Under the pieces are notes generated by a model. The model searched no databases. It had not been told where the DNA came from and saw nothing but the letters and a program-made list of their open reading frames with translations. A stretch of 64,000 nucleotides of DNA from Ginglymostoma cirratum (lineage: Eukaryota): assembly GCA_024137785.1 (NCBI GenBank), contig JAHRHZ010000139.1:39743411-39807410 (forward strand). The letters are read 5' to 3'. A program made the translations under genes and the position numbers. The first letter of the stretch is position 1; every line of letters begins with the position of its first letter. Positions 1-47,420 of this stretch are shown piece by piece.

Positions 1-1145
1 ATCAATGTAACGGAGGAAGAGGTGGGGTTTAGGGCCAGTGTAGGTACGGAAGAGGGATTGTTCCACATAACCTACAAAGAGGCAGGCATAGCTTGGACCC
101 ATGCGGGTACCCATGGCCACACCCTTTGTTTGTAGGAAGTGGGAGGAATTGAAAGAAAAGTTGTTGAGGGTGAGGACGAGTTCGGCTAGGCGGATGAGGG
201 TGTCGGTGGAGGGGGAGTGGTCCGTTCTGCGGGACAGGAAGAAGCGGAGGGCCTTTAGGCCATCAGCATGGGGAATACAGGTATATAGGGACTGGACGTC
301 CATAGTAAAAATGAGGTGTTGGGGACCTGGGAATTGGAAGTTCTGGAGGAGGTGGAGGGCGTGGGTGGTGTCACGGACGTAGGTAGGGAGTTCCTGGACC
401 AAGGGGGTGAAAATGGAGTCTAGGTAGGTGGAGATGAGTTCGGTGGGGCAGGAGCAGGCGGAGACAATGGGTCGACCAGGGCATTCAGGTTTGTGGATTT
501 TGGGGAGGAGATAGAAGCGGGCGGTGCGGGGTTGGGGAACGATGAGGTTGGAGGCGGTGGGTGGGAGGTCACCTGAGGTGATGAGGTTGTGGATGGTTTG
601 GGAGATGATGGTTTGGTGCTCGGGGGTGGGGTCATGATCCAGGGGGCGGTAGGAGGAGGTGTCAGAGAGTTGGCGCCTGGCCTCAGCATTGTAGAGGTCA
701 GTGCGCCATACTACGACTGCCCCTCCCTTGTCCGCGGGTTTTATGGTGAGGTTGGGATTGGAGCGGAGGGAGTGGAGGGCTGCACGTTCTGCGGTGGAGA
801 GGTTGGAATGTTTGAGAGGGGTGGAGAGGTTGAGACGATTGATGTCTCGACGGCAGTTGGAGATGAAGAGGTTGAGGGAGGGGAGGAGGCCTTGGGGTGG
901 TGTCCAGGAGGACGGCTTGTGTTGGAGGCGGGAGAAGGGGTCAGTAGAGGGAGGGTTAGATTCGCGGTTGGAGAAGTAAGCGTGGAGGCGGAGGCGGCGG
1001 AAAAACTGCTCAATATCCAAGCGTGAGCGGTATTCGTTGATGTGTGGGTGGAGGGGGACAAAGGTGAGCCCTTTCCTGAGGACTGACCGTTCGTCCTCAG
1101 TAAGGGGGAGGTCTGGGGGGATGGTGAACACTCGGCAGGGCTGCT
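1..1145 (-). mobile_element. Penelope-like element (family A) reverse transcriptase, 5'-truncated, runs off the window edge
   Basis: One reading frame from 1140 to 1 gives PCRVFTIPPDLPL..., IKPADKGGAVVV, FYLLPKIHK..GRPIVS, TMDVQSLYT, GVAMGTRMGPSYACLF and ends FLRYID at base 1. These are PLE RT motifs. Confidence 0.93.
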
Positions 1146-1440
1146 AACATCATCCCGCCCCCTTGACCTGTCCGTCCTCCCTGGACTGACCTATCTCCTC
1201 CCTACCCCCCTACCTACACTCACCTTTACTGGCTCCATCCCCGCCTCTTCGACCTGTCTGCCTCCTCTCCACCTATCCTCTCCTCTATCCATCCTCTATC
1301 CGCCTCCTCCTCTCTCCCTATTTATTTCAGAACCCTCTTCCCCTCCCCCATTTCTGATGAAGGGTTTAGGCCCGAAACGTCAAGTTTTCCTGCTCCTATG
1401 ATGCTGCTTGACCTGCTGTGTTCATCCAGCCCCATGCTTG
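1146..1440 (+). mobile_element. Inverted PLE family A 3' terminal segment (pseudo-LTR) joined to the truncated 5' end of the RT copy
   Basis: C/T-rich tract, then a hammerhead core and the tail gatgctgcttgacctgctgtgttcatccagc shared with 20472, 25643 and 39029. Orientation is opposite to the adjacent RT. Confidence 0.8.
1354..1381 (+). ncRNA. Minimal type I hammerhead ribozyme core (PLE family A)
   Basis: CTGATGA-A-GGG tttagg CCC-GAAAC-GTC: catalytic core, stem II, self-complementary ACGT stem III and GUC cleavage triplet. Confidence 0.8.
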
Positions 1441-1964
1441 AAGTCTCAGAAAATGTTATTTTCTCAAAATTGTTGTTTCTTTTTGCATGGACGCTGCCTT
1501 CTATGAAAGATTACCCTAATAACTCAATTTTACGAGAGAATAGAGCTGTTGCCTGTCAACATGTATGTTTAATTATCTATGATTCATGCCTCCAAACAAG
1601 TGTTCAAGTGGAATTCTTATATTATTTGTCCTTCCCTCAGCTAGAGATATTGACTGTCATTTTGTAACTTAGAAAGGGAAACCAGTGTCCCATTTTCAAT
1701 TCAGTCTAAGTGCTTGAAGTACAGAAAGAAGTTTACCTGTTGACACACACTCAATGGCACACTTCCTATAAAATCTTCAAATTTAAGAATGAAATACAAA
1801 ACAAGTTGTGAAAACAAAAGGTCTAGTCAACATAGGGCTCCAAACCGTATCATGCAGGAATGTCATTTTGAGTCAACTGACTCAGAAGGCTTTTAGAATT
1901 AGAATCCAGCTTCAGTCCTTCCAAATATTCTTTTTAAAATGCAAATTACTTTGTAGGAAGGGTC

Positions 1965-3792: not shown

Positions 3793-3802
3793 CGACTTCA
3801 AA

Positions 3803-5182: not shown

Positions 5183-5605
5183 ATAGAACGGTTTCATCAC
5201 AGAAGGTGGCCATTGAGGCCCTCTGCTAGAGCAATTCAGCTAGTTTCACTCCAAGCCTTTTCCTCTTAATGTGCAGCTTTTGCCCCTTCAGATAATTATC
5301 CAACCTCTGTTTTGAAAACCAGAGAAAAAGTTGCCTCCACCACCCTCACGGACAGTGCATTTCATATTGTAGCTAATTGTAGCATAAAAGAGGTTTTCCT
5401 TATGTTGCCCTTGGGTCTTTTGCCATTTCCCCTCAGTATCCTGGCTCTTGGCCCTTGGCCAACTGTTCCTCTCTGCCGACGCAGTCCAGAGCCCTCATGG
5501 TTTTCAACCTTTCTATTAGATTTCTTCTCAACTTTCCCTTCTCCAAGAAGGAAAGCACCAGATTTTCCAATCTATCCCAGTAGCTCAGATCCCTGGAAAC
5601 ATTGC
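5183..5605 (-). mobile_element. Decayed CR1 3' fragment
   Basis: Reverse-complement CR1 tail and degenerate ORF2 end. Confidence 0.65.
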
Positions 5606-5799
5606 ATTTTCTTTATGACAGCTAAACTAGCCACATTTTTAATAAACTAAAAATTATAGCAGAATCCACCTGAGTTCGAATTCAGGGTATGTTTGTCATT
5701 ATGACAGAAATATGGTGATAACAACAGCAAGAAACACTTCCCATAGCACTTCATAGAAGCGTAAGCAAAAAAATAAATCAATGTCAAGCCAAACATACT

Positions 5800-6900
5800 G
5801 TTGTTATGACAGTGCTGGAGGAGCGCACCAACTCCATTCTCTCACTGTCGTAACAAATTTCACATATAACCAGGTTGGTTATAGCCCAAAATCATAGGTC
5901 TCAGACTGTGTCTGATTCAGTTTTGTAACAATTCAAAAACATAAATTGCTGGCGAAATTCAGCCGGTCTGGCAACATCTGTGGGATGAAATCAAAGTTAA
6001 TGTTTCAAGTCCAGTGACTCTTCATCAGAACATAGAATTATATCATTGCGATCAATTCAGCCAGGTTTCTTTCACCCATGGAAAATAATGAGTCTATTAC
6101 ATAGAAAACTTACCTAAGAAAACATGCAAAGATTATTGACAAAATAGGTTTATACGGTGCCAATATTGATATGATTTATATTCTAACATCACAAAATTAA
6201 CATGATGCAAATTAGCGGAGCAGATAGGTGATGGTCAAGCACTTACAGATCACATCAAATTGCAATCCAACCAAACAGCTCCCATGGATTTCTCAGCACT
6301 CTCCTGCCCCTCAGATGTTTGTGATACTGGGGGTCGCCAAATCTCACAACCTCATTAAAACTTCACAAGGGATTACAATTCTTTACCTTTGACAACCTAG
6401 TCCTGAAATTCTCAGTAAAGCCATTCCATCATGGACTGCTTATGCAATTGCTCACGTTCTGGTGGTCAGCGCTCCTTTTCTAGAACTATGCTTATCTGGC
6501 TTCTTGGAAACTGAACTCCAGCACGTATTTATAATCAGACCTCCAGCTACGCACAAATAGCAGGTTTCTCCAAGCTAATACTGCCCTGAATTAGTTTCTT
6601 AAACTGTAGTCAGGCTCAATTGTACAAAGCAAATCCAGCTTCTGGGTTTTCAACCCTTACTCCCTGTTGTACTGAGCTATTATCTATGCATTGGCTTCTT
6701 TCTAGTCCTTAAGAGGGCCAGGAGTTCACTGACCCTTCACTACGGAACTTGTGCAGTTGTTCAGTTGACTTTAGCTGCACAGCTAACAGCAGCCCTGCCT
6801 GACATGGAGTAGACTTTTCTCTCCCCCACGCACTATCTTTCAATCTCACCACTTGTCACCTTTGAACTCCTCTTCCATGACACCACCCCCCCACCAACCT
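5800..6900. mobile_element. Possible LTR-like repeat interrupted by a PLE mini-element
   Basis: Begins tgttatga and has LTR-like composition; right boundary not defined. Confidence 0.25.
5933..6031 (-). mobile_element. PLE family B-like mini-element with hammerhead core (5999-6028)
   Basis: Minus strand reads gttCTGATGAagagtcactggacttGAAACattaac...cagatgttgccagaccggctga, homologous to 28089 and 32158. Confidence 0.75.
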
Positions 6901-8729
6901 GTTCTAAGTGACCCATTTAGAAACCTTGTAACATCAGCTTTGCTGGACAGAATTGAAGATAATGAATACTTTAGAATAGCTGAATGTATCAAACCCTTCG
7001 AATTCTCTGTTCCTTGAAAGATATCATTTTAACAGAATTCTGGCTTACAGCACAACTTGCATACAACAGAAAATTAGGAATTGATCAAACTGTGATAAAA
7101 GATATAGATGTTAAGGAGAATCTTACAAGAGCACAGAGAGATGTATGGACACAATGTTTTCAGCAGGAATTTTCCAACATGGGCTGAAACCAGGGCCATT
7201 TACAAGAATGGCCATTTACAGGATCGCAAACACATAGGTCAGGGTCAGAGCCCAAACAGTTTGGCTTGGTGTGATATCACTGGAGAAAATTAACAAGCTG
7301 GGAGTGGAAATGCCATGGAGAGTACCGAAATTTGAGGTGCTTATGGATCTAACATGGCTCATCAAGAGTAATAGTCATATTAGATTGGGTGTAGACAGGG
7401 TATGAGATAACCAAATTTCAGAAGATCTGAAAATTACAGGGTGTGGAAGATGGAAGGTGAGCCAGGAGCAGCGTTGGTACAATTCAGTATGGAGATGATG
7501 AAGCAATGGACAATGGACAAGGATTTTGTTGACAGATTGGCTGAGATAGGAGGAAGGCTCATAATACAGAAGAAAGAGTAAGTGTTTCTTTTGTGACAAA
7601 GAGGAGATAAGGTCAGAATCTCACCTCTGTGGATGAATAGGAGACTGGGATTGTCATCAGTCTGGTTCACCCTGAGATGGTGACTGGGGGTAGTGAGTGT
7701 CAGTTGTGTGGGGAGGGGGTGGTAGGGGTGAAAGCAGCTGAAGAAATTGGCGTTGCTTTCTTTGTGGGTTAACTCGAGGAAACGGTAGTTCATTTAAAAC
7801 CAGGCAACAATCTGATGACAAAGAGGCAGAGATCAAGTGGGAGATGGCAGAGGTGTCATCAATCCAGGCGTGGAATCCTGAACTTTGACCTTTAGATGTT
7901 GCCAAGTGCCAGCATGTGGATGATGAGGAGGAGGGGCCACTCCTGGATATTTGGTATGTTCCAGAGGTAACAACTTGGAGTGTGAAAGCACATTGTTGGT
8001 CGAGACGCTCAGGCCCTGATCAGAAGGTGATGCCATGAAGCTGCAGACAGACAGCAGGCTGTGGAGGGTGATACTGCTTGATTGAGCAATTGCAAAAGCA
8101 GCCTTGTTTTTATGTCTTGTGTAATGTTGCTGAATAATAATTACCATTTAACAATTTATATTCACCAGACTGAAAATAAACTAATTGCTTTTCTGCTATT
8201 TCATTTGCTAAATGTTTTAATTTATTACGCAAATTAATATGACTGTAATTGAATTCTTTGTTCTCTTGAAAGAAATTATAGCCAAAAATGTAATTGGAAA
8301 GGGGTTTAGAAATTAATGATAAGATAATTAAAAGGTTGGGTAATACATCTATTGATAGATACCACCAGTCTGACAGATTAAAGACAATTGCGAGACGTAA
8401 GGTTCCGTTATTTAAGGTAACTACTTGCAGACTTGATGGACCAACTAGTCTCTTTCTGCCTGTCATTCTCATATGTTTGTGTTTTCTGAGTGTATTTTTT
8501 CAGTAAATGTCCTCTGGCTATTCAACCCTAGTCCTGTCCTCATCCAGCAATTGCATGCCACAGAACTGGGAGTGAGAGATCAGACTGTTACTTTCCTTCT
8601 TAACTCTGAATCCAGCACCCTGACATGATACTTCAGCAGACTTTGGGCAACTCAGCACTTACAACAGATCACTCCCGTTACAGTCATGGAGGTTTGGCTC
8701 ATAGCATTAGGCTGTTTGCTGGCTAAGTG

Positions 8730-11390
8730 TGCAGGGGAGAAAATCTGATAATCCCAGAAACTGGGTGTGGGAACTGGTTAACCTACACAGGCAGATTGAA
8801 ACAATTGGAATCCTGGCAGCGCATTCAGCTCGTGCTAAGCTCTTCAAAGTCTTCAGGTTTCAGCAAAGGGATCAAAATCAGAAATTCCTAGTGCCACCAA
8901 AAGCTTGTCTGCACCTCTCCAAAAGGAAGTTGCATTGTTACTAAGACCGTGGCAGTCTTGTAGGAAATGAATCTGAACTGGAAACCATGGAAGCATAACA
9001 TCATATGGGGGCAGCTAGGTTCCTATAGCTTTGGAAATTGTACAAGAGAAGGAATTGGCATCCTGAATCTATTGGGTTGGGTGCGGGGTTTGCAGGAGAC
9101 CCTCTAGCCATACAATGAGAAGGCAGGAGAAGCGGATAGCTGCGGAGCTCAGTGTCAGAAGTCAAGAGGACCTGAGCACATTGCATGAAGAAGTTCAATA
9201 CCTCACAGAATTGATCTTCAAATCCCATATCTTGACTAACTAGTCTCATTCACTACTCCATTCTCCAAACCCCATCACTGACCTCACACCTACATCTCAA
9301 AGCTTATGCCCATTGCCAGCTATTCAACCAAGATAATCACATCCAAGAAACATTTTGCTCTAATTTACCTGACACACCTCCTGCTCTCTCGCAGGATAAG
9401 ATTTTGCACAAGTAGAGGCAGCTGCATCTGTCTAGTGACAGAAACTGACCTGAGGAATTTGGTGCATCTGCATATCCCAACCAACATGTAGGACGCCATC
9501 ACTAGAATGGGTATTGCTGAGGGTATGCAAATAGCAGCACTGGAACCATTGAAAATGCCAATATCTTCATGTCTAATCCTACTTCTCACATCTCACTTCC
9601 CCTTCATTCCCCATTGTCTCCTGGTTTACAAGTGGAAATATTGGTGTAAATATGTCCCTCCTGCTTTCTCCTTCCCTCATCACAACATTACCTCTGAGCC
9701 TTTTCCCTTTTAGATACCCCATGAAGGGTAATATGGACAGGCAGTCTTGAAAATCTGACTGGACAGTGAGGACGAAGACGCAATACTGGTACATGATTCG
9801 GAATCACCAATGCAGTTACAGATGGCGCACATAGCTTAGAGAGTGACTTATTGGTGGGATCTTCATATGGCAAGCCACTGGATGTGGGTATCCAATAGCT
9901 GGGGGAGCAAACAATACCAGCACTGGTCTCAGCTCCTCGACAGGTGAGTTTTTACTGCAGATATCACAGATGAGGACTGTGTTAGAATTGGTTACATAAA
10001 TAGAGAGATGGGTACGCACTATGACATTGCTGGGAAGCCTTTGGTCAAAGGGTGGAGGATGCCGTCACCACGGTTGCCACAGGGCTTTACATAGATCTGG
10101 AAGCCCATCGTTTTGAATATAGAACTAGCATATTTATGGATCTAATCATAATGGCCAATGTCCCAACTTTCATTGCAGCACAAGCAACATCTCAACGTAG
10201 AACATAGAAAAGCACAGCACAGGAACAGGCCCTTCAGCACACCGTGTCTATGCCGACCATGATGCCATTCTAAACTAATCATATCTGCCTACTCCACAAG
10301 CTATCCGGTATTTGCCCCTGCAGTAGAAACTCAGACTGCCACCATCATGGCTCTGGTTTATAAGTTCAAGGGGCCTACAGGCTCTCAAAGCAGAGTAGCA
10401 TTCTGTCCTCCAGTTACCGGGACTGAGGAGGTGCCACCCTGAGGCAATGGCTTTAAGGAATATGAATCAGCTGTCCTGACTCAGTGACTCCAATAGGCTT
10501 CCAAACCCTGCCACTTTGCCACGTGCATGCTGCTACCTATGCTGAGATGGTACGGCCTGCAGCTTTCCATGGCCCGGTGCTGCGTAAAATCATGCTCCAA
10601 GACCATCTACAGTTTCCTCCACTGCAAGCTGGCATCCTTCCACCAGCCAGTGGGGGCACCACTCTGCAGGAACATTAGCATAGGCAGCACAAAAGGGCAC
10701 CAATGGGAAATGCGAAGAGTAGTCTGTGGTGATATGCAATGTGGAATGATTTAATTTATCACATTAAATTTGAATGTTTGTTTAGTAGTTTGCTTTTGTT
10801 TTATTCATTGTTAGCAAAATGTGCTTGTCCATGGCCGAGGGAAGGAAGCTGGTGGGCTGTCGTTTAATGTGGAATCAGGGTTGCAGCTATTGGTATCATA
10901 ATCAAATTAGGTCTTCATAGACAGCAAGTGCAGAAAGAAAGGTAACGTTCTTACTTGCTCCTCTTCCTTTTTGTCTCCTCCTCCTCCTCATGCTCCTTCC
11001 CTTCCTTATGCTTCTCCTCTTCAGCTGCTTCCCAGCTGTATCTTTAAGATTATGTAGATTGTCATATGCCACTATGCTGTTCTGCAAAGTGCTATAGATC
11101 TCTTCCTGAGGATTCCAGTATTTGCATAGGTTGGTTCAGGTTTAGTGGAATCCCTTTCAGATATAATTTGGGGGCAGAGTTGACATGTGGTGCCAATAGC
11201 CTGATGCCCGTGTGGTCAGTGGCACCCAATGTCATGGGAATGCCTGTAATCCTAAAGTAGCAGCATGCTTGTGTTGCCTGTGAACAGAGAATGAAAGGTA
11301 ATTAATTCTCATTTAAATTGAAAGTCTCAGTGAATTTCATTATGCAACAAACTGTAAGATGTTGCAAATGACTCCAGCCCCATGCTGGGG
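8730..11390. mobile_element. Decayed PIF/Harbinger transposon (Myb/SANT-like gene on +, transposase remnant on -)
   Basis: RT*AHCMKKFN at 9167 resembles the RTxxQCRKKFNDL motif; next exon ctctcgcag|DKILHK at 9395. Minus strand 11087-10902 reads IVAYDNLHNL...ALAVYEDLI, like the HARBI1 C-terminus. Confidence 0.65.
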
Positions 11391-11395
11391 GATAT

Positions 11396-12200
11396 TGTAA
11401 TGAAAGGTTTTTGATTTTAACGTTGATAGAGCTTAGACTTCAAACTGTTGGCATATAAGTTACTTTTGTGGATACTTGGATAAAAAAAACCAATCAAGTA
11501 GTCTTTTCAGAACCATTAGCTGATCCTGTATGTGTGAGAGAGCAGGAAAACTGTACAATATTGTTGGAAGATGGTTTGCATTGTGCTGGGTTTAAGACTG
11601 AGAGTGTAAGCACTGAACGCTATCAACTTGTTGCGATTAAGATAATTAAGTAACCTTAAGAAATCTGGAAATTGGAAGCTGTTGAGCAATTTTTGTAGGA
11701 GATCTAACTGATGTCAGAAAAGAAAGAAGTGTAGAACAATTCAGTGTATAAATTATCTTAGTGGAAAGCTAGTTTGAGTAGCTTTGGTTAGAATTTGGTT
11801 AGAATTCTGCAGATTATTGAACCCTTAGGACACCTAAGTTTTCAGTTTTGTAAGTGTTGATATAAGAGGACTTCACAGTTCACAGGAAAAGATTGGGAAG
11901 AATCAACTGGTCAAATTTAAAGATTTGAGATAGATGTGGAATTGCTCTGAATGTGATGCTGCAAAGTGATGGTGATGGGGAACAGATGAAAACTTTGCTT
12001 CACTGTCCATTTTAAGATCAATAAAATAGTTTAGTTTATTTTATCTTTTTGTGTTTCCTTGTGTGTAATAAATACATGTTTCATTGTTAAAGAAAATCTG
12101 CAGCCTTCTGTGCTCATGTTTCAGTGAGTGACCACCATGTTAAACAAAAACAATGTGATCTACGAAGCCAGGTCTCTTTCCAGGTTCTGTGCTCTAATTC
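11396..12200 (+). mobile_element. Probable solo LTR
   Basis: Starts TGTAA, with a TATA-like gatataag and AATAAA near 12019 and 12066. 3' end and TSD not resolved. Confidence 0.3.
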
Positions 12201-12239
12201 CTGGATCTCTTTTCTCCGAGGCATGGGTCATCCTTCCAA

Positions 12240-14878
12240 GTTATTCAAGGACAGTATAACGGTGGCTGAAAGAACTTTTGACGAGGACTCGTCTACTGAG
12301 GTGGTATGGGCTGAGGTCAGAAACAGGGGAGGAGAGGTCACACTGCTGGGAGTTTTTTATAGGCCTCCGCAAAGTTCCAGGGATGTGGAGGAGAGGATCG
12401 GCAAAATGATTCTGGGCAGGAGTGAAAGGAACAGGGTGGTCATTATGGGAGACTTTAACTTCCCCAACATTGACTGGCATTGCTATAACTCTAGTACGTC
12501 GGATGGATCAGTTTTTGTCCAATGTGTGCAGGAGGGTTTCCTGACACAGTATGTCGAAGGGGCAACAAGAGGGGAGGCCACACTGGATCTGGTACTTGGT
12601 AATGAACCAGGCCAGGTGTTTGATTTAGTGGTAGGTGAGCACTTTGGAGAGAGTGACTATAATTCGGTTACTGGATAGGAACATGCCATTGGGCAAGAGT
12701 TATAGGTGGGGGAAGGGCAATTATAATGCAATTAGTCAAGACTTAGGAGGGATAGAATGGGGTAGCAAAATGCAGGGGATGGGGACAATCGAAATGTGGA
12801 GCTGGTTTAAGGAACAGATATTGCGTGTCCTTGATAGGTATGTCCCTGTCAGGCAGGGAGGAAGTGATAAGGTAAGGGAACAGTGGTTTACAAAAGAAAT
12901 TGTATCTCTTGTTAAGCGGAAGAGGAAGGCTTATGTGACATTGAGACGAGATGGTTCAGATGAGGCGATTGGGAGTTACAGATTAGCTAGGAAGGATTTA
13001 AAGAGAGAGTTAAGAAGAGCAAGGAGGGGACATGAGCAGTCATTAGCAGGTAGAATATAGGAGAACCCTAAAGCTTTCTATAGGTATGTGAGGAATAAAA
13101 GGATGACTAGGGTAAGAATAGGGCCAGTCAAAGACAGAAGTGGGAAGTTGTGTGTGGACCCTGTGGAGATCGGAGAGGTGCTAAACGAATATTTCTCATC
13201 TGTTTTCACTCGGGAAAAGGAGAATATTGTAGAGGAGAAGACTGAGATATGGGCTATTAGACTTGAAGAGATTGAGGTTAGTCAGGAGGAGGTGTTATCA
13301 ATTCTAGAAGGTGTGAAGGTAGATAAATCCCCTGGGACGGATGGGATTTTTCCGAGGATTCTCTGGGAAGCTAGGGAGGAGATGGTGGAGCCTTTGGCCT
13401 GATCTTTGAGTTGTCATTGTCTACAGGTTTAGTACCAGAGGACTGGAGGATTGCAAATGTCGTGCCCTTGTTCAAGAAGGGCAGTAGAGATGACCCAGGT
13501 AATTATAGACCAGTGAGCCTTACATCTGTTGTAGGAAAAGTTTTGGAAAGGATTATAAGAGATAGGATTTATAATCATCTAGCAAGCAACAATTTGATTG
13601 GAGATAGTCAACATGGATTCGTCAAGGGCAGGTCGTGTCTCTCAAACCTTATTGAGTTTTTTGAGAAGGTGACCAAGCATGTGGATGAGGGTAGGGCAGT
13701 TGACGTGGTGTACATGGACTTCAGTAAAGCCTTTGATAAGGTTCCACACGGTAGGCTATTGGAGAAAATGCGGAAGCATGGGATTGAGGGAGATTTAGCA
13801 GTTTGGATTAGAAACTGGCTTTCTGAAAGAAGGCAACGAGTGGTGGTTGATGGAAAATATTCAGCCTGGAGTCCAGTTACTAGTGGTGTGCCACAAGGAT
13901 CTGTTTTGGGACCATTGCTGTTTGTCATTTTTATAAATAACTTGGACGCAGGCAGAGGTGGATGGATTAGTAAGTTTGCAGATGACACTAAAGTCGGTGG
14001 AGTGGTGGACAGTGTGGAAGAATGTTGCAGGTTGCAGGGAGACGTGGATAAGCTGGAGAATTGGGCTGAAAGGTGGCAAATGGAGTTCAATGCAGATAAA
14101 TGTGAGGTGATTCACTTTGGGAAGAATAATAGGAAGGCAGAATACTGGGCCAATGGAAAGATTCTTGGTAGTGTGGATGTGCAGAGGGATCTTGGTGTCC
14201 AGGTACATAGATCCCTGAAAGTTGCCACCCAGGTTGATAGTGCTGTTAAGAAGGCATACAGTGTGTTAGGTTTCATTGGTAGAGGGATTGAGTTCCGGAG
14301 CCGTAATGTCATGCTGCAACTGTACAAAACGCTAGTGCGGCCTCACTTGGAATATTGCATACAGTTCTGGTCGCCCCATTACAGGAAAGATGTGGAAGCA
14401 GTGGAAAAGGCACAGAGGAGATTTACCAGGATGTTGCCTGGTCTGGAGCGAAGGTCTTATGAGGAAAGGCTGAGGGACTTGGGTGTGTTTTCATTGGAGA
14501 GAAAGCGGCTAAGAGGGGATTTAATAGAGACATACAAGATGATCAGAGGATTAGATAGGGTGGACAGTGAGAGTCTTTTTCCTAGGATGATGACATCGGC
14601 TTGTACGAGGGGGCATAGCTGCAAATTGAGGGGTGATAGATTTAAGACAGATGTCAGAGGCAGGTTCTTTACTCAGAGAGTGGTAAGGGCATGGAATGCC
14701 CTGCCTGCCAATGTAGTTAACTCAGCCACATTAGGGGCATTTAAACAGTCCTTGGATAAGCATATGGATGATGATGGGATAGTGTAGGGGAATGGGCTTA
14801 GATTAGTTCACAGGTCAGCACAACATCGAGGGCCGAAGGGCCTGTTCTGCGCTGTATTGCTCTATGTTCTATGTTCTA
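12240..14878 (+). mobile_element. CR1 LINE, 5'-truncated ORF2 (AP endonuclease + RT), inactivated
   Basis: GVFYRPP, MGDFNFP, LDLVL (endonuclease); NYRPVSLTS, QHGF, DFSKAFD, GVPQGSVLGP, FADD (RT). Deletion/frameshift near 12670, nonsense TAG at 13058, frameshift near 13400, (CTATGTT)n tail. Confidence 0.97.
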
Positions 14879-18162: not shown

Positions 18163-19842
18163 TTAAGGGCAAAAGACCAACTAGGGAGAGATAGGGCTCC
18201 TTAAAGGTCAATGAGGTTGCCTAGGTGTGGAAGCTCAGCTATTGGGAGATATACCAAACAAATATTTCACATCAGTTTTTACAGTGCAGAAAGAAATGGA
18301 GGCTAGGGAACTCAGGGAAATAAATATTAATGCCTTGAGAACAGTGCACATTACAGAAGAGGAGGCGCTGGAGGTCCTTAAAAAATATAAAGACAGATAA
18401 AACTCCAGACTTGATCAAGTGTATGCCAGGGTGTTCTGGGAAGTTTGGGAAGAAATTGCTGGGCCCCTAGCAGAAATATTTGTATCATCTACAGCCATGG
18501 GTCAGGTGCTGGAGGACTGGAGGGTGACTAATGTTTATTTAAAGAAAGGCTGTAAGGAGAAGCCTGGGACTATAGACCAGTGAGTCTGACATTGGTGATT
18601 GGTAAATTGCTGGAGAAGATTCTGAGAGATAGAATTTACACGCACTTGGAGAAGCAAGGAATGATTTGGAATAGTCAGCATGGCTTTGTGTGTGGGAAAT
18701 TGTGTCTCAAAAACATGACTGTTTTTTGAGGACATAGTCAAAAAGATTGATGAGGGCAGAGCAATACGCATTGTCTACATGGACTTTAGTAAAGCTTTTG
18801 ACAAGATTCCGCATGGTAGACTAATTCGTTAAGTTAGATCAAATGGGATACAGGGTGAGCTTGCTAATTGCATACAAATTTGTTTTGATGGTAGGAGACA
18901 GAGCATGCTGGCCGAGGATTGATCGTATATTGACAGTGAAGAAGGTTATTTAAGATTACAAAGGGATCTTGATCAATTGGGCCAATGAACTGAGGAGTGG
19001 CAGATGGAATTTAATTTGGATAAATGTGAAGTATTGCATTTTGGTAAAACAAATAAAGGCAGGACTTTGCCATAACACAGTATGGAGCTGGAGGAACACA
19101 GCAGGCCAGGCAGCATCAGAGGACTTAAAAAGCAGGGCCCTGGGTAGTGTTGTCAAACAGAGAAACCCCAAGATTCAGCTACATAATTCTTTGAAATTTG
19201 CCTCATAGGTAAACAGGGTGATTAAGAAGGCATTTAGCGTGCTTGCCTTCGTTGCTCAGACCTTTGAGTATAGGACTAGGGACGTCATGTTGAGGTTGTA
19301 CAGGATGCTGGTGAGGCCAGATTTGGCGTGTACAGATCTGGTTGCCGTGCTATGGGAAGGATATTATTAAATTGGAGACAGTTCAGAAAAGACTTACCAG
19401 AATGTTAGTGGGATTGGAGGGTTTGAGTTATAAGGATAGGCTGGGACTATTTTCCACTGGAGCATAGGAGGTTGGGGGGTGACATTATAGAGGTTTATAA
19501 AATCATGAGGGACATACATAAGGTGAATAGCAAAGTGTCAGGGAGTTCAAAACTAGGAGGCATATTTTTAAGATGAGAGGAGAAAGATTTAATAGCAGCG
19601 TGGGGGCAACTTTTTTTACACAGAATGTGGCTCGTATATGGAATGACTGCAAGAGGACGAAATAGATGCAGGTGCAGTAACAACATTTAAGAGACATTTG
19701 GACAGGTACGTGAATAGGAAAGGTTTAGAGGGATATGGGCCAAACACAGGCAAGTGGGACTAGTTTAGTTTGGAAAACTTGGTCTGCATGGACGAGTTGG
19801 ACTGAAGGGTCTGTTTCCATGCTGTACGATTCTATGACTCTC
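18163..19842 (+). mobile_element. Decayed CR1 LINE with internal deletion (~18920) and a PLE-tail insert
   Basis: DWRV, YRPVSLT, QHGF, MDFSKAFDK motifs and CR1 3' UTR ending (ctatgact)n. Confidence 0.92.
19071..19122 (-). mobile_element. ~50-bp PLE family A tail fragment inside CR1
   Basis: Reverse complement ctctgatgctgcctggcctgctgtgttcctccagctccatactgtgttatg matches the tail at 39074-39123. Confidence 0.8.
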
Positions 19843-20471
19843 TGACTTTGTAACCTCTGCACACCAAGGTCCGGACCATAAATATATGTCAGGAAAAGCA
19901 AAAGCCCTGTTAGATCCTATAGTTTTCAATGTGAGTCTCAGACCAGTGGTCGGTTCAGGCAACCGTTATTGGGATACACACATCAGTTACAGCTTCAGAC
20001 CTTTATAGCAAAAAAGCACGCAGAAAATTTCTAAGTAGCTTTGTTTATACAGCTCAAGCTCATATCGCACCCCCCCACTCCCCGCATGCTATTGGTCAGT
20101 AGGGCTGAGTCATCCAACTCTGATTGAACCTTTGGTACAGCATTTTGTGTCAGCAATTTGCCTCAGCAATTTACTAGCTATCCCGTCCTGATTGGACCGT
20201 TTTGTCCGTACACAGTTTCACTGTTGATAATAACCTTCCATCCTTAACCCAAAGGAAATACTGCTGTATTCAGCAATTTTAATGTATTTCCTATCACCAC
20301 CTTTAACACTTACAAACCAATCACATTTATTTATTAAGCTAATCACAATCACTGCATGGCTACAGATGGACAGGTTTGTGGTCAACCCCCAGTCCTTCAT
20401 GGTTTCATGATGTTTCCTAAACTCTCTTATCTCCCTTCTTAGGGCTTTTTACAATGGATACTGCATTCAAC

Positions 20472-20570
20472 CCATTTCTGATGAAGGGTCTAGGCCTGAA
20501 ATGTCAAGTTTTCCTGCTCCTATGATGCTGCTTGGCCTGCTGTGTTCATCCAGCCCCACACCTTGTTATC
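20472..20570 (+). mobile_element. 99-bp PLE family A mini-element with hammerhead core (20478-20505) and 12-bp TSD
   Basis: CTGATGAagggtctaggcctGAAAtGTC plus tail; ACTGCATTCAAC at 20460-20471 and 20571-20582. Confidence 0.88.
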
Positions 20571-21459
20571 ACTGCATTCAACTTTATTCCTTTTCAAGCA
20601 TTTGCCAGCTGAACCATGTCAAATACCAATTAATTGGATACTTGCCTATCACTTAAGGACCTTTTAAATTCATTTCTCCCTGTCGTGACATGGAGACTGC
20701 TTTTACTGTCTGAGGCTGGTTTGCTCTCGTAATTTTATTTGAATCTTTTCCTCTAATGCTTTTAATGTTTATTTTTGTATATAGGTGAATCTATAACTAC
20801 TTCAGAATCTCTATCTATGAATATTTGAAGGATCTTAACTAAAACCTACTATTGATATTGAAATAATTCGAGAGATTCATTAACAAAATGTAGCATGAAA
20901 TGTTCTTGTCTATATCTTATATGTAAATACCTGCAGCTGTATATTCTATCTCAGTTCTGTTCCCTTGATTCTAGAGAGCTACTATTGTTCTACTTGTGAA
21001 GACTACATTAAGCAAATATTTTCCCAAGCTCTCTAACTACTGTCGGCCATGTTCTGCTGCATTAGCCATGGGCAGCCATCGGCCATTTTGTGTTGTTCAG
21101 TCATAGGCAGCCCTAATAAGACCCAATACTAACCTCTGGAAACCTTCCACCAGCCCGAAATATATCCTTTTGCTGTTGCTGTCTGTTTCCTATCACTCAG
21201 CCAATTTCTATCTGCTGTGTCATCCTGGGAATTCTGCATTTGTTTGTCCTACCTTCCCGTTTTCAGGGAATATCCCTTGATAATACCTGAATCATCTCCT
21301 CTTTGAAAGTAGCCGACTGGTTATAAAAACATACACCCAGAGTGCCATATTCACTGTCGTACTGCAGTCAGGTACAGAGCAACAATGGTCTGAGTCCTCC
21401 AAGCATAGCAATGATTGTGGGATTGCCATTGCATTTGTAAATTCCCTTCACCACATGTA

Positions 21460-25642: not shown

Positions 25643-25773
25643 TTTCTGATGAAGGGTTTAGGCCCGAAACGTCAAGTTTTTCTGCTCCTATGATGCTGCT
25701 TGACCTGCTGTGTTCATCCAGCCCCATGCTTGTTATCTCGGATTCTCCAGCATCTGCAGTACCTTTTATCTCT
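25643..25773 (+). mobile_element. PLE family A mini-element with hammerhead core (25646-25673)
   Basis: Core identical to 1354-1381, followed by the full tail ...gttatctcggattctccagcatctgcagt. Confidence 0.88.
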
Positions 25774-26317: not shown

Positions 26318-26717
26318 NNNNNNNNNNNNNNNNNNNNNNNNNNNNNNNNNNNNNNNNNNNNNNNNNNNNNNNNNNNNNNNNNNNNNNNNNNNNNNNNNNN
26401 NNNNNNNNNNNNNNNNNNNNNNNNNNNNNNNNNNNNNNNNNNNNNNNNNNNNNNNNNNNNNNNNNNNNNNNNNNNNNNNNNNNNNNNNNNNNNNNNNNNN
26501 NNNNNNNNNNNNNNNNNNNNNNNNNNNNNNNNNNNNNNNNNNNNNNNNNNNNNNNNNNNNNNNNNNNNNNNNNNNNNNNNNNNNNNNNNNNNNNNNNNNN
26601 NNNNNNNNNNNNNNNNNNNNNNNNNNNNNNNNNNNNNNNNNNNNNNNNNNNNNNNNNNNNNNNNNNNNNNNNNNNNNNNNNNNNNNNNNNNNNNNNNNNN
26701 NNNNNNNNNNNNNNNNN
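26318..26717. other. Assembly gap (400 N); right flank 26718-26758 is a PLE family A tail
   Basis: Run of N followed by gttatctcagattcttcagcatcggcagttcctactatct. Confidence 0.98.
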
Positions 26718-27326: not shown

Positions 27327-27987
27327 CCAACATGCCAACCCTCTTAGAGATGCGGTGCCAACAGTATGGATTTCCCTACCTACCTATATTGTCTGACTTT
27401 TAGAAGAACTTTTTGGAGACAAGGGTTTGATAATGGAGAACAAATCTAATTTTCCTGCATGTCTAGCATGTTGACAAAATCTCCAGGCAATAGCAGACGT
27501 TCTTGTTCAGATCCTCTCACCGCTTCCCTTCCCACCTTTAGCACTGCAAGCAATTTGAAACCATAATAATGAGTCAAGAAACTGTGCGAAAGGATTGATT
27601 AAAAATGTATTTAGTATTTGATTTTGATCTTTTAATTTTGAAGTTGCTTCCCCATGTATCAGTGTGCCTTTTGCAATAGAGCGTTCTGCTCTTCTCCCAA
27701 CCTCCATTCTAAAGTAGCTACAATCATTTTTTCTATTGAACATTTCATTGTATTGCGCTGCTATAGAGGAGAGGGAGGACTAACAGAGAGATGACAGGCC
27801 AGCCAGTGCGGATACAGCACCCATCCCTTGGTGCCTTCATTCCAGGATACACAGGCTAAGGTAGTCACATGCAGTACTTGTAAAGGCTGCATGGTGTCCC
27901 ACCTGTGAGTAATACCACATGCTGCGACTCAATGTGCAGTCTGGTTACACCATGGATACAAACCCAACAGTAATTGTGAAGCAACAT

Positions 27988-28225
27988 AAACAAAGTTACT
28001 GGAAAAGCCCAGCAGGTCTGGCAGCATCTACGAAGGAAAAGACGGTTAACATTTCCGGTCCAGTGACACTTCCTCAGAACTGAGCAAAGTTCTGAGGAAG
28101 CATCACCGGACCTGAAACATTAACTCTGTCTTTTCCTTCACAGATGCTGCCAGACTTGCTGGGCTTTACCAGCAACTTTGTTTTTGTTCCCGATTTACAG
28201 CATCCGCAGTTCTTTTGGTTTTTGT
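27988..28225. repeat. Palindromic PLE family B derivative: ~95-bp inverted arms, 6-nt loop, one hammerhead core per strand
   Basis: 27988-28081 is the near reverse complement of 28088-28183; CTGAGGA at 28092 (+) and 28077 (-). Confidence 0.9.
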
Positions 28226-29544
28226 TTAGTGATTGTGAAGACCATAGCTAGTCTGAAAATAGATATTAATCTAACATCTGCAAGGTTAGTTAAAATGAAG
28301 TTAAATGAAATAAAGAAGAATCATATGAAGCCAGAGGATGAACTAATGATTAGAAAGGCCATTGGTTTTAAAGTGTTTTTGTATTTTGCTGAAGGAATAT
28401 GTATGCGCTAAGACTGAGTGCTGTAAGTCAGCACTAATGGACCAAACTGTCACCAAAAAGTGAAACTTCTGCGCAAACATACACAGTGAATCAGATGTGA
28501 TGATGTGGTCTATTTATCAGATGAATTTGTGACTGTCATAGAATTGTACTGTATCAATATCATACATTTCACTGGCTGACATAAAAGTGGAGAAAAGTGA
28601 TGGCAAGCAAAAATTTTATGTCAAAGTCCACTAAAAACAAGAGATAAGCATTTTTCCAAGGAGACACAAGCAAGCCCTAATGAGTTAATTGATCAAAGTG
28701 ACATGGAAAACATGACACATTTGTGATGTTTACCAATTTTCAAACTATCATTTACTGGAGACTTAAGAGTGTTAAATCACAGCCTCTTTGTATGGAAACA
28801 GTATGAATAAAGCCATACATCACAGCACAGTTAGCCGGCTAGGGGTATAGGTCATTTGATCAATAGTTAGAAGTTGGGACAGAGCAGGCTGATCACCTTC
28901 AGACAAGTCCACATAAAAGAGTTCACTTGTGATTGTAAGCACTGCATAGATAAGATTTCTAGCAGTATTTTTGTGGTGTATTTTCCTTTAATAAAGAACA
29001 TTGGGTATATTCTGTTGTTAGACCTTTCTTGGCTTAATGATATCCAGAGTAAACTCGATGTTTGAGGAAAAGTGGGAATAAAAGTTTATGGAAACTTCAT
29101 CAAAGGAGGTTGCTCCAGGATGCCACTAAGGTATGAGAAACATGAGCCGATCAGATAAACACAAAAGCATAACATCAGATCTATTGCTTTCTTCAGTGTG
29201 TTAGTTAATTCATTATCCATCTGGATAATCAGTAGTGATATTGCAGGAGACTGGTACCTCACTGAGTGACAGCAATCATAACCTGCCCCCAGGTGACAAA
29301 ATATTATTGGTGGATCTATCGCCATCATTGGGAAATTTATATACTTTAATATCCTCTTCCTCTGTGTCAGGAACACCAAACCACTTCGACAACCAAATTA
29401 AGGCAATTGTCTATGTATCCTGTTGACATAGGGAAACAAATTTCTTGAGCATCCTGAAAGATTATCACGGCTGACGGCACTTGTACCTTTTCGACGAGAA
29501 CCGGTTGATACCATGAAAGTGAGGCCTATTCTGTCACCAGGCAG

Positions 29545-30820: not shown

Positions 30821-32041
30821 GAACTAGATATTTACTGGGAACTTGTTCAAGGGAATCAAATAAAATTTACCTGGAAATTTCCAAGGTGGTTCAGGATGGT
30901 GAGGGATAGATGGTAGGCAGCATTGGACGGACAGAAATCTCATCCTGCCACATATCAGGTAGACATTGTGCTGAGGTGGTCATTCTAGTTTGAACAAGTC
31001 TATTTCTAGATTGGACCCTGTTTTTCTCAGTCGACCAAAACATTCCTTGGGTTCATCTTTAGATGTGAATGGTTAAGTGTTAAAAAACTGGAATGGTGAA
31101 GTGTATTGGCCTCTTTTCACATTTCTGCCTTCGATTCAAACTTCGATCGTCTGGTTTCTCAGACCTGCATTTTAAAAACCAAAAATACACTATAACTTTT
31201 AAGTCTCACTAATTTCTAATGCAAAAAAGTTTATTCTCATTAAATTCCTAAGAATTGAAGCTGAAATCTGTTTTCAGTCTTCTTTGTGCTTTTAGTGGTT
31301 GATAATGCAGCAAAGATATGATATGATTTGTGTATCCCCTCTTCCCAGCACAGAACATTCACTGATATAAAACCTTGTACAAAGTTTCTTTATTAATCCA
31401 AATGCAATATGTGTGACCTCAGGAGCAGGGCATTGTACCTGTATTGCACTTAACTGATATGACCATCTATCATACCTCTACTCTGTTGTTTGTTCGAAGT
31501 TTGAATAAAAAGGGCAATAAATACTATAAGACACCAACAATGTAACATTCAGGCAAATGGAAGCATATACAAATACAATTTTAAAAAGCTCCAAAAATAT
31601 AAATAATCATGCACAAACAGAACGTAACCACCATTGGCATATATCAATGAAATGGCAGTGCCTGAAGTATCAAGATAGAGTAATGAAACTTTAAAAATGT
31701 TATTATTATAAAATTGTAAATATATACAAGCATAAATTCACATTTAAAATCTATTATCCAGGTGGGATGTAACACATTCTCAGCTTTGACACTGTTTGCT
31801 AATTGTTTAAGTTTAAGAATCACTTTAGTCTCTTTACTGATTTTATATTGTGTCTCCTTCTGTGACATGGTTTAGATGGGTACCCAAGGCAAAGACAGAG
31901 GGGAGAGCTCCAAAATGTTTGAGTTTGGGTTCATTTGGATGCTGGAATATTAAAAATCTGAATCTCAAACCAAACTGGCTCCAACTTGCCCACTCCAGTT
32001 TTTTGGGCATAGCGTCAACAATCAACCTACTGGAAAAGGAT

Positions 32042-32676
32042 AAAAACCAAAAGAACTGCGGATGCTGTAAATCAGGAACAAAAAATCAGGAACAAAAACA
32101 AAGTTGCTGGAAAAGCTCAGCAGGTCTGGCAGCATCTGTGGAGGAGAAAACAGAGTTAACGTTTCAGGTCCCGGTGACCCTTCCTCAGAACTGATGGTGG
32201 CTGGGAAAACGTCAGTTTATATGCAGAAAATAGGGAGGTGGGTGGGGCAGGGAGTAAATGATAGGATAGAGCCCAAAGAGAGAGAAAGGCAGATGGACAG
32301 ACAAAGGAGTTGCTAACGATCAGGCTGGGAAGGTGAGTAGTTGTTAATGGGGACTGTTAGTGACTAACAACAGGGGGTGTGTAATGGCAGGCTATGTGTG
32401 ACAAGGCCTGGTGTGTGGGGTGGGGGGCGGGAGGTGGGGGGGGGTTGGCTGGGACATGGGAGAGGGCTGGGACATGGGAGAGTTTAGGTCCTAAAATTAT
32501 TGAACTCAATATTGAGTCTGGAGGGCTGTAGGGTCCCCAAGCGGAAAATGAGGTGTTGTTCCTCCAGCTTGCGTTGGGCTTCACTGGAACACAGCAGCAA
32601 GCCAGAGACAGAGATGTTGGCCTGGGAGCAGGGTGGTGCATTGAAGTGGCAGGCAACAGGTAGTTCAGGGTCTTGA
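32042..32676 (-). mobile_element. PLE family B 3' fragment: GIY-YIG endonuclease C-terminus, 3' UTR and hammerhead (32158-32188)
   Basis: Minus strand PELPVACHFNAPPCS...RKLEEQHLIFRLGTLQPSRLNIEFNNF, then CTGAGGAagggtcaccgggacctGAAACGTT. Confidence 0.9.
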
Positions 32677-35391
32677 AAACCGGAAAAGAATGGCAGCTTA
32701 AATGGTTATCATGTGATTGCTTGTACTATTCAGCAATCATTTTAACTGTAACTCTAATCAGTGGTGTTTTCTCAGGTGAAAGGAACTGACAGCTCCTGGA
32801 TCCAGGAGATAAGTGTCTTTCCACTTTACCTGCTGATACATCAACTTCACCAAGGCCCTACAGCCACCTTACCAATGTGCTTCAGGCTGCTGCCGATGCT
32901 GATTCACCTTTCTTGAGCATTGTGATCTCCCACCTCAATTTTTACAAATCCCTCCATGCAGTTTCCAATCTCTCACCCTGATCCTTCCAATTTCTCCTGA
33001 CCCTAGCTTCTGATCTTCCCCTGGCTACCAGTTTGCCCAGTCCAATGCTGGTCTCCCCACTGCTGTCTAGCTGTGTACCCTGAACAATCCCAGCTCTGTG
33101 ATTTTACCCAACTCTGGATGATATTCCTTGGAACCCCAAACACCTGGCCTCACAGATCCCATCCTCCCTCATCTTCTCTCAAAAGGCTGTAACCTGGCAG
33201 CAAAAGCTGTATCCTCTTGAAACATCTCAGTCTTGCTAGCCACAACAAGGAAACCAGGGCAAAAAGTATTTTTATAATTAAGCAGAACTTTTGGGAATCT
33301 TGTCCTTCTGCAGTTTCTGACTTCAAACCAATACCATTCATCCCTCCCACCTTTGATTTAACATCCTCCCGAAAAGGAGCATTTAAAACAAGATAAGCCC
33401 TATAAGTCAGAACACAAAACTCGTGGACATTGTCTTCAACGTTTCAGCTGCATTCCTAATGCTTGCAGACTCATAATGGAGTCAGTCTTTTCACTGCAAT
33501 AGATATCACCAGACCATGTGTCATTTGGGTTCAATAAGGTAATTTGTTTTCTAATCTCTTCTAAATCTAGGATTCTAAGTATTCCGTGTACTTACAAAAA
33601 ATAAATATTACAAGATCGGCAAAACAGTGATTTTGTTATGATTCAGATCTGGATATTATGTTCAATCACCTGAACATCCCGAGGAGCAAGTGTTCTGAAG
33701 CCAAATGATTAGCTAAGCCTCAATGCAGAATGGTACGTGGATTAATCATTGGCAGTTTAATAAGAAGGACCTGTGCTTGCAATAGTTTGCTTAATGGAAT
33801 ATTCTTGGGAAAGATACTTCACATGAACTGCAATTTCAAGCAACAATTATTCCTGTGTAAATACAATAGATAGCAAATAGTCATGAACAACAGGTTTGCT
33901 GTAACAAAGCCTAATTGGATGAAACTGTCAAAAAGTATGGAAACATGTTTTTTTCAAGATCTGCTGTCGCTTGACAATGATTAATGATCGGCAATGGTCC
34001 CTCTAAATTTTCCTTGTTATGCACAGCCTGTTTATTTTAATGCATGACAACTTTGTATTTGTTGTGCAGCTGTACACACAGCACCTTAGGGGAGACAGCT
34101 TGCGAGCAGCCTGTTTCCATGTCCGTACCATACCCATGCACTTTTGAGCAGCTTGGAGGGAGTGTTGGCATGTAGTCTTTTATGTGCCTACCTATCACAT
34201 CCACAAACCATATCCAAAGTAAGGAATGTTTTTTTTTTCTTGTGTGAGCATTCAGTTCCACTCAAATACAATTTGTTCTTGATGGCTACACAATCCTGAA
34301 CCTAGAAGAATTTGTCCAACTATAAATTGCATTGCAGAACGTGATATATATTAAACATTGAACAGCGATGACAAAATCCGACATGAACATATATTCTGCG
34401 CTTCACATTTTGATTTTCACATTTCATACAACTTACATTACAAGAAGGGAGGCACAAAGCCAGATACAAAACAGCTTAACTCATGGAATAGTTAACTTGT
34501 GAAGTGTATGGAATAGTCTTCTACTTTGCTGACATCAGCTATCTTGAAGGGTTTCCATCCTTCAAATGATAAGATATCCATCTTATAATGCAGTAGCTTG
34601 CAAAACTTTGATTCTTTCTAAGGAATTCTGAGGATACTTGAGAAAACCTGTAAAATTTCTGTCACATTGCCATGGGATTGCACGATAATGGGATGTCCTT
34701 CTCCATCTCTGTGTAAAGTTCAAGCATCAGCACAAAAGCACTTGTTTGTTTTGGCACAGAATTAAAATGCACTGACAATAATAATCCTAACCAACGCGAT
34801 ACAGGAATCGGAGGTGATATGATCATAGATTTGGAAGGATGGCTGTCAGTTGTTGAATGAAAAAGACCCTAAAAAGAGCATGATCTATTTTCATTCCAGA
34901 ATCCACCACACAGCAAAGGGACCTAAACAGTGGCAGGGAACAGGGAGGCCTGAACTAGGTAAATTCAAACACTATCATGAATCCAATTTACCAAAAGCAG
35001 TGTCTGCGCATTATCCTGGCAACAGCATTGTTTGATATGTGTATGAGTAGTATTCCATGGAGCTGCTTATCAATTGAATCCTGATGAAGTAATGTCTAGG
35101 AGGAGACAGTAAGCTGGTGGAATAAATAATTTTTTATTGGACTCTGAGGTTCTTTTTCAGATAGGTGGCAGCAATGAATGAATAACATGCCATGCCAACC
35201 ACTTACTGCCCAACGATTCTATCAAATTCTTTACAGCTTGCTCATTGTAAGGGATGGTCTTTTTACATTCAATGAATGTTCAGACATTCAAGTCAAAAAG
35301 CTTTGTGAGCCTCTAGACATCAATATGTCTCTGTAATATTGATGAATCAAATGAAGAACACTTGTTAGGACTTAATTAAAATTGGAAAATT

Positions 35392-38430: not shown

Positions 38431-38628
38431 ATTTTCACCTCAGTAAACAATTGAAAAAAAACCCAATTTTCTACCCCAATGTATTTTTCACTTCTAGTTG
38501 TTAATTTGAATAGGAAGCTTGAAACTCACCTTCCAACTAAAAGCCAACTCTCCATGTCAGTGGAATAACAAAACCTATTAAACCAAGTACTATCCTTCCT
38601 AGATGAACCCAGCAGGCCAAGCAGCATC

Positions 38629-39028
38629 NNNNNNNNNNNNNNNNNNNNNNNNNNNNNNNNNNNNNNNNNNNNNNNNNNNNNNNNNNNNNNNNNNNNNNNN
38701 NNNNNNNNNNNNNNNNNNNNNNNNNNNNNNNNNNNNNNNNNNNNNNNNNNNNNNNNNNNNNNNNNNNNNNNNNNNNNNNNNNNNNNNNNNNNNNNNNNNN
38801 NNNNNNNNNNNNNNNNNNNNNNNNNNNNNNNNNNNNNNNNNNNNNNNNNNNNNNNNNNNNNNNNNNNNNNNNNNNNNNNNNNNNNNNNNNNNNNNNNNNN
38901 NNNNNNNNNNNNNNNNNNNNNNNNNNNNNNNNNNNNNNNNNNNNNNNNNNNNNNNNNNNNNNNNNNNNNNNNNNNNNNNNNNNNNNNNNNNNNNNNNNNN
39001 NNNNNNNNNNNNNNNNNNNNNNNNNNNN
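38629..39028. other. Assembly gap (400 N) flanked by inverted PLE family A termini
   Basis: Left flank 38602-38628 is the reverse complement of the PLE tail; right flank starts at a hammerhead core. Confidence 0.98.
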
Positions 39029-39160
39029 TTTCTGAAGAAGGGTCTCGACCCGAAACGTCAACTTTCCTGCTCCTCTGATGCTGCTTGGCCTGCTGTGTTC
39101 ATCCAGCTCCACAACGTTTTATCTCAGATTCTCCAGCATCGGCAGTTCCTACTATCTCTC
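39029..39160 (+). mobile_element. PLE family A variant terminus with hammerhead core (39032-39059)
   Basis: CTGAAGA-A-GGGTC tc GACCC-GAAAC-GTC with a perfect 5-bp stem II. Confidence 0.88.
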
Positions 39161-43259: not shown

Positions 43260-43495
43260 CTGCAACAGAAAAGAAATGGTAATTGGTGACTGTTCAGTGC
43301 AATCATTCCTATTCCACTGAGAGTTAAGAAAAATGTCTATCAGTAGGACTGCCACCACAAAACAAAAGGATCTTTGCAGGCCACTCTTAATTCCACGTAC
43401 ACAATTGAGTCTACAACAACTTGCATTGATATAGTGCCTTTAGCGTAATAAAAGGCTCCAAGATGTTTCACATTCTATCAAATAGAATCTGCCAC

Positions 43496-47329: not shown

Positions 47330-47420
47330 TTGTTCTGATAAAAGATCATTGAACAGAAACCTTAACTCTACAGCTGCTACCAGACCTGCTGAGTACTTTC
47401 AGCTTTTTCTCTTTTTCTGA
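47330..47420 (+). mobile_element. Old PLE mini-element with degenerate hammerhead and 7-bp TSD
   Basis: gttCTGATAAaagatcattgaacaGAAACcttaactct..ctgctaccagacctgctgag; CCATTAA at 47323 and 47421. Confidence 0.65.

Follow-up and report, generated by a model that had tools for sequence, protein, structure and literature searches.

A 99-bp insert in the 64,000-nucleotide stretch of DNA analysed here (the window) consists of a hammerhead ribozyme motif and a short tail, and related units at other positions begin at nearly the same place, a few nucleotides before the ribozyme core. This locus raises the question of what these units are and what sets their common 5′ boundary. The initial annotation had offered two readings, a defined non-autonomous retrozyme-like RNA mobilised by the reverse transcriptase (RT) of a Penelope-like element (PLE), and a structure-dependent RT stop at the ribozyme. 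Positions with a sign are counted from the core CTGANGA.

Hammerhead inserts and their parentage

The insert at 20472-20570 was found to be flanked by ACTGCATTCAAC at 20460-20471 and 20571-20582, a perfect 12-bp target-site duplication (TSD) for which the chance of such a 12-mer pair was ~2e-5 with 225 offsets considered. The annotated 99-bp unit of hammerhead and ~65-nt tail within a 12-bp TSD was thus confirmed at 20460-20582. The insert comprises CCATTT, the core CTGATGA (20478-20484), helix II, GAAATGTC and then 65 nt past the cut, with cleavage predicted after C20505; the motif was read as a minimal type-I hammerhead following PMC4209133. Two CpG-type decays in this copy disrupt a base pair of helix II as well as the ACGU palindrome, and the focal hammerhead is therefore likely inactive.

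A search with nhmmer using four window-derived queries revealed 12 related pieces belonging to two families. Family A has pieces at 1354+, 20478+, 25646+, 39032+, 38628- and 26718+ and a tail-only piece at 19123-; family B has pieces at 32188-, 28092+, 28077-, 6028- and 47335+ (Table 1). The sister units annotated at 25643, 47330, 6031 (-) and 28089 were all present, with edges at -3 or -4 from the core. The unit at 28089 is not solo, however, but shares one 9-bp TSD with a second arm to which it is joined head-to-head; arm 28077- begins at -6 and lacks the tail, and arm 28092+ begins at -4 and carries it. Beyond what had been annotated, the window contains two families, a head-to-head pair, long copies and one tail-only copy. 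Copy 47335+ begins at -3 plus two extra T and has a degenerate core (CTGATAA), and the long family B copy (32188-) extends ~490 nt upstream of its core and has a possible 7-bp TSD. The long copy at 1354 and the short copy at 25646, the one pair compared, were identical at 89 of 90 nt over core and tail. The motif CTGANGA alone was not enriched in the window (51 matches versus 45.6 expected), and Rfam returned no hammerhead match. The hammerheads have the core CUGANGA with GAAA and helices I and II, and helix III is absent, as in a minimal type-I hammerhead.

Table 1. Positions of the inserts and of their component parts in the window
Feature	Position	Strand	Remarks
Left TSD, 12 bp	20460..20471	+	Final C perhaps also element-templated (1-nt microhomology)
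Focal 99-bp insert, family A pseudo-LTR (pLTR) end module without optional tail	20472..20570	+	
Initiator-like CCATTTC, A at -4	20472..20478	+	ATTT doubles as helix I 5′ strand
Minimal type-I hammerhead (CUGAUGA, helix II, GAAA, helix I 3′ strand) without helix III	20478..20509	+	
Right TSD	20571..20582	+	
Family A short copy, from -3, ~35-nt tail	25643..25772	+	6-bp TSD TGTTTT, 3-nt overlap with element
Family A long copy, ~213 nt upstream of core at 1354	1141..1450	+	
Inverted PLE RT fragment, 380 codons open	1..1140	-	Head-to-head with family A long copy
Family B head-to-head pair, 4-nt spacer	27982..28231		One 9-bp TSD, 27973-27981 / 28232-28240
Family A inverted pair spanning N gap	38602..39160		14-bp TSD, 38588-38601 / 39161-39174; tail on + arm only
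Degenerate family B short copy	47330..47420	+	7-bp TSD CCATTAA, 47323-47329 / 47421-47427
Family B short copy, from -3	5935..6031	-	Weak 6-bp TSD
Family B long copy: endonuclease C-terminal end, 3′ UTR, hammerhead at 32188, tail	32039..32681	-	
Family A tail-only copy, beginning ~10 nt beyond cleavage site	19068..19126	-	7-bp TSD; counter-example to the shared edge

Both N gaps of the window (26318-26717 and 38629-39028) adjoin family A modules. The second lies between inverted arms under a 14-bp TSD, and head-to-head inserts may therefore have broken the assembly. The window additionally contains a rhodopsin-family GPCR exon at 42506-43336 (-) (Pfam 7tm_1, E 5e-41), which we take to resemble the serotonin 5-HT7 receptor; an inverted pair at 3801-4356 and 52423-52978 (556 nt, 98% alike) with LINE-type RT-end ORFs, presumably CR1-like; a LINE RT ORF of 470 codons at 13375-14787; and a tandem array of a G-rich ~22-nt repeat at 47562-47900.

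To identify the parent elements, we compared the coding remnants with known proteins. The RT fragment at 1-1140 (-) gave an RVT_1 match with an E value of 9.5e-5, below the curated cut-off, and 989 longer homologues at E <=1e-30 among 3,500 candidates; these are single-ORF RT-GIY-YIG proteins, and many carry PF01541. A CX4CxxC linker between RT and endonuclease was present in all four homologues inspected of the 120 listed, and the corresponding region lies outside the window. A CX2-5CxxC zinc-finger-like linker marks Neptune PLEs and also occurs in Nematis (PMC8557442). Judged from these sequences, the inserts appear to derive from two Neptune-type PLE families, with the linker trait common to Nematis. 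The segment 32490-32690 matched the C-terminus of a PLE endonuclease homologue (E 1e-9); the hammerhead at 32188- lies ~300 nt past the endonuclease stop and hence beyond the ORF, in the pLTR. Because the window holds no whole ORF, the RT is tied to family A by adjacency only. Its 380 codons are stop-free, which suggests a young subfamily. The optional tail and the adjacent inverted copy, both PLE traits, were also present among the window copies.

We found that helix I covaries, with 3.8 bp versus 2.0 in 1,000 partner shuffles (maximum 2.29) among 126 distinct matches from other animals; the first pair is mostly A-U in these matches and U-A in the window. As the TSDs abut the inserts, these are insertion products and not deletion remnants of longer elements. 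The PLE parentage of both families supports the annotated view that PLE machinery made the units, and very probably they are PLE insertion products and not a separate family.

Counted from the core, the window copies had two classes of 3′ end, +86 to +98 and +127 to +139; in copies from other animals, most right-hand TSDs lay at +74 to +88 or at +114 to +144. In both inverted pairs of the window, the longer 3′ end was present on one arm only, with a single TSD per pair. The PLE tail is known from only one end of inverted copies (PMC8557442); in the anole element, two internal RT start sites define the tail and both target strands are extended (PMC11167929). The two 3′ end classes fit this known PLE tail biology, which explains them. 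The template of the anole element is the uncleaved RNA (PMC11167929), which accounts for the retention of the hammerhead core in the copies.

The 5′ edge in the window, in reads and in other animals

Insertions were counted as informative when their core was intact and their 5′ junction could be seen. Five of the seven informative window insertions begin 3-7 nt before CTGA (-6/-7, -3, -3, -3 and the pair at -4/-6), and the remaining two are long (~-213 and ~-490). The seven do not include the 38602-39160 pair and the 26718 tail, whose 5′ junctions lie in N gaps, or the tail-only piece 19123-. For five of seven starts within -7..-1, the binomial probability is 2e-7 at a loss of 0.37% per nt, the upstream loss rate taken from the X23 reads, and 3e-5 at 1% per nt.

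Reads or contigs of four of the 24 listed runs were placed on window positions 1151-1450. Run X23, which consists of poly(A) RNA reads from organism A, contributed 38,863 reads, and X24 only 47. In X23, the depth climbed gradually upstream, from 2,716 (1201-1210) to 4,409 (1331-1340) over 130 nt, that is, 0.37% per nt, and was then 5,034 (1341-1350), 11,203 (1351-1360) and 14,318 (1361-1370). Depth rose threefold in 16 nt, from 4,649 at 1350 to 13,759 at 1366, a loss rate ~18 times the upstream rate. Part of this step may come from subfamilies that differ in their upstream region, and short copies within genes may be over-represented, as these are RNA reads. A further rise at 1381-1400 was largely due to variant cores clipped at 1386-1387. 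No class starting at the cleavage site was seen in X23, where this variant-core clipping overlies the region, and no pile of molecule ends, including at the cleavage site, was seen in this library, which has roughly equal strands and is not suited to showing one.

The opposite-strand joints in X23 pointed to the same position. Among the 13 joints listed, 10 had one end at 1347-1351, with 159 further joints and 1,096 loose ends outside these 13; joint 1351-1351 was represented by 114 reads with 72 starts. Five of the 10 recur in contigs of organism B, organism C or both, the two being related organisms. The strongest opposite-strand joint, 1355-1376 (354 reads, 90 starts), was absent from both contig runs; it may be a library fold-back artefact or come from one expressed locus, and was left out of the evidence. 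The contig depth showed little or no step and was high upstream (3.1M to 5.0M in X10, 4.3M to 4.6M in X17). This depth, which is not copy number, argues against short copies being most of the genomic copies.

To understand whether the edge is general, we examined copies from other animals. Pattern scans gave at least 123 loci from metagenomes, of which 10 of 64 parts were covered, and 4 from genomes, together holding 132 core matches. Of these, 96 copies in 9 clusters were retained; dropped were 27 copies from clusters with one or two members, 3 whose cluster lacked a long reference, 3 representing one locus thrice and 3 duplicates. With breakpoints placed by hand to about +/-3 nt, 32 breaks fell within -1..-23 per 1,860 nt at risk, versus 27 per 6,928 nt further up, a ratio of 4.4 (p 3e-8), although some of these breaks may be mimicked by divergent subfamilies. 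The mode, at -14 to -23, lay off the edge of the proximal helix I, which has 3-6 bp in these families. At 8 distinct loci, a second core lies inverted 15-50 nt upstream of the first. The excess is common to unrelated families but lies at other distances, and therefore the break excess is general and its distance from the core family-specific.

Many families among the metagenome loci L001-L123 have a short conserved motif, TTGACACTT or TTGGCACTT, ~20-30 nt past the cleavage site; it is conserved though the tails otherwise differ, and is possibly a candidate protein-binding site. Two bacterial MAG contigs (L124 and L127) carry hammerhead modules that cluster with animal PLE-type families and probably represent host contamination, whereas the hammerheads of L125 and L126 seem to be bacterial and unrelated. 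A scan of viral contigs gave 0 matches.

Taken together, the five of seven events, the X23 step and the excess in other animals bore out the annotated claim that random 5′ truncation does not give such a boundary. Self-cleavage after GTC cannot make the 5′ edge either, because of the type-I topology, as had been argued. The units carry a real shared 5′ edge.

Explanations for the edge

We see about an even chance that the inserts are TSD-flanked pLTR end modules made when an internally primed RT runs off the 5′ end of its RNA. RT would be primed, likely at the nicked target, inside the RNA ~90 or 130 nt downstream of the core, and would reach the RNA 5′ end, probably 3-4 nt upstream of the core, to give a short unit. 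If the RNA begins in the upstream pLTR, an initiation site would lie only ~100-140 nt from its 5′ end; priming in the upstream pLTR would then give the short unit, and priming in the downstream pLTR the long, randomly truncated copies. If both target strands are extended, the two resulting run-off cDNAs would become joined head-to-head. Short units would themselves be dead ends, since in the anole element the RNA needed for activity reaches 3′ of the initiation sites and stays uncopied (PMC11167929).

The RNA 5′ end would be a putative Pol II start at an initiator-like motif (CCATTTC in family A, TCAGTTC in family B). The initiator consensus is YYANWYY, and both window families match it with the A at -4, a match noticed post hoc; each 203-nt upstream stretch holds only 3 such motifs. 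A conserved ATG lies 47-54 nt downstream in both. PLEs have a start site inside the pLTR (PMC2377424, PMC8557442) and a promoter in the pLTR (PMC6765202). Several observations stand against run-off at the A as +1. The focal copy reaches -6/-7, overshooting the initiator-like motif by 2-3 nt, and arm 28077- reaches -6. The putative +1 A is T in 36% (X10) and 24% (X17) of the contig depth, and a variant without A at the putative start exists. In a test for a cap-derived extra G, G stood next to the element in 2 of 5 copies with untemplated letters, which was not significant. In Penelope of D. virilis, 46 nt separate the start site from an intron of 75 nt that runs up to helix I (PMC2377424, PMC4209133); the start is therefore ~120 nt upstream of helix I and away from the ribozyme edge.

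The edge of helix I and the initiator A coincide in the window families, and the same bases can be read in another way. The template 5′ end could be set by the ribozyme fold or a bound protein, through 5′-3′ exonuclease trimming to a hammerhead RNP or through RT drop-off past helix I, the latter possibly paired in trans within a dimer; we regard this as unlikely. In both window families, the edge is the helix I 5′ strand (-4..-1), whose covariation is described above; in some other families the breaks lie close to what may be a longer helix I (for cluster 5, edge at -19 and breaks at 17, 17, 6), and the ends at -5 to -7 are accommodated. However, helix I in the window has just 2-4 bp, monomer folds did not exceed shuffles in stability (z -0.98 to +0.76), and constrained folding gave inconsistent extended-helix edges, from -3 to -32. 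A simple structural block would be expected 3′ of the fold. As an RT moving 3′ to 5′ should stall at the 3′ side of the fold and the whole fold is copied, the annotated RT stop at the ribozyme fits poorly.

An edge made at the DNA level seems quite improbable. Here the endonuclease would resolve an intermediate at ATT, or a longer cDNA would be trimmed to T-rich microhomology with the AT-rich target. The anole enzyme favours 5′-ATT-3′ on both strands (PMC11167929); ATT is found at -4 in family A, and many junctions have a 1-6 nt TSD overlap, but family B has AGT instead. Furthermore, upstream ATT (-30 and -34 in A; -43 and -71 in B) is not accompanied by a comparable step for family A, and head-to-head junctions, which are free of target sequence, meet at the same bases.

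We consider it very unlikely that the units are a small non-autonomous element in their own right, akin to a retrozyme or SINE, that has master copies and is mobilised in trans. Such an element would have a defined length and 5′ end and TSDs, as the units do, and its internal promoter would be kept; retrozymes do stem from PLE pLTRs (bioRxiv 10.64898/2026.07.22.740005). Against this, the short and long copies of the one pair compared are 89/90 identical and give no sign of an own lineage, both 3′ end classes occur in each of two families, and no tandem head-to-tail units are present within the window. In addition, retrozyme monomers begin and end at the cleavage site (PMC7761336), and the ends here lie off it, at -3..-7 and in the tail. 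The annotated retrozyme-like RNA was thus unsupported. Random 5′ truncation with ascertainment on CTGANGA, or subfamilies with unlike upstream sequence, would suit the long and tail-only copies and the contig depth without a clear step, but is largely refuted and highly improbable in view of the window p of <=3e-5, TSD-defined and head-to-head junctions that are independent of upstream alignment, and the break excess in unrelated families.

Other candidates were rejected. A 3′ splice site conserved at this position would need AG, which family B has but family A and most other families lack, and the joints listed include no splice-like skip. A DPE at +28..+32 failed, with a 3/5 match to the consensus. 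A G-quadruplex stop was rejected as a general cause, the other-animal families being AT-rich upstream.

The run-off reading can be carried further, to a PLE strong-stop cDNA. In LTR retroelements, minus-strand strong-stop DNA is a short cDNA, primed internally and extended as far as the RNA 5′ end; it is tRNA-primed and RNase H-dependent, whereas the window units would be target-primed and directly integrated, so that the likeness is an analogy only. We put this forward as a speculative and rather doubtful extension: cDNA would be target-primed from the 5′ pLTR tail, run to the cap before the hammerhead and then normally jump to the RNA 3′ end, where the pseudo-LTR would be built; the palindromic hammerhead would chiefly dimerise two RNAs for an enzyme that is itself a dimer, and failed jumps would leave solo and head-to-head units.

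Relation to known elements

The inserts were compared with known systems. Truncated copies of Neptune-type EN+ PLEs (PMC8557442) are alike in a parent with RT, linker and GIY-YIG, a pLTR hammerhead, an adjacent inverted copy and a 30-40-nt tail at one end; the truncations are frequent, but in the accessible part of that source they have no focus at the hammerhead 5′ edge, and no core-to-core pairs a few nt apart are described there. Solo metazoan PLE hammerheads (PMC4209133) share the minimal type-I core, the ACGU palindrome and a 4-bp helix I. Dispersed single motifs are there called 'probably related to truncated PLEs' and opposite-strand pairs are also noted, although these pairs are 100-700 bp apart and the portion consulted contains no TSD or breakpoint analysis. 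The anole Poseidon element PAc (PMC11167929) is alike in its two internal RT starts and in the cutting and extension of both strands; it belongs to another clade, and the insertion 5′ end and the RNA start are unmapped in the sections available. Animal non-LTR retrozymes (PMC7761336, bioRxiv 10.64898/2026.07.22.740005) are likewise non-coding, PLE-related dispersed monomers with a type-I hammerhead, but from what these sources give their defining features are units in tandem and circular RNAs that run from one cleavage site to the next, and the window is without tandems.

The literature searched, mostly non-subscription papers, whose supplements may bear on the point, did not mention 5′ ends concentrated at the hammerhead. 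Truncation of PLE copies has been described before, as have solo minimal hammerheads; the focused 5′ edge is apparently unreported. The completion of PLE insertion, the formation of pseudo-LTRs and the role of the hammerhead are open questions in the field (PMC11167929, PMC8557442 and PMC7761336). The base-precise 5′ edge common to solo and head-to-head copies would be the genomic footprint of an intermediate, and the run-off reading, if true, would pin down the missing step of PLE copying. The edge gives a sharp prediction for RNA 5′ ends and for in vitro PLE assays. Run-off would also explain inserts flanking assembly gaps, and the solo minimal hammerheads that animal genomes contain by the thousand would then be by-products of PLE copying and not a mobile ribozyme family.
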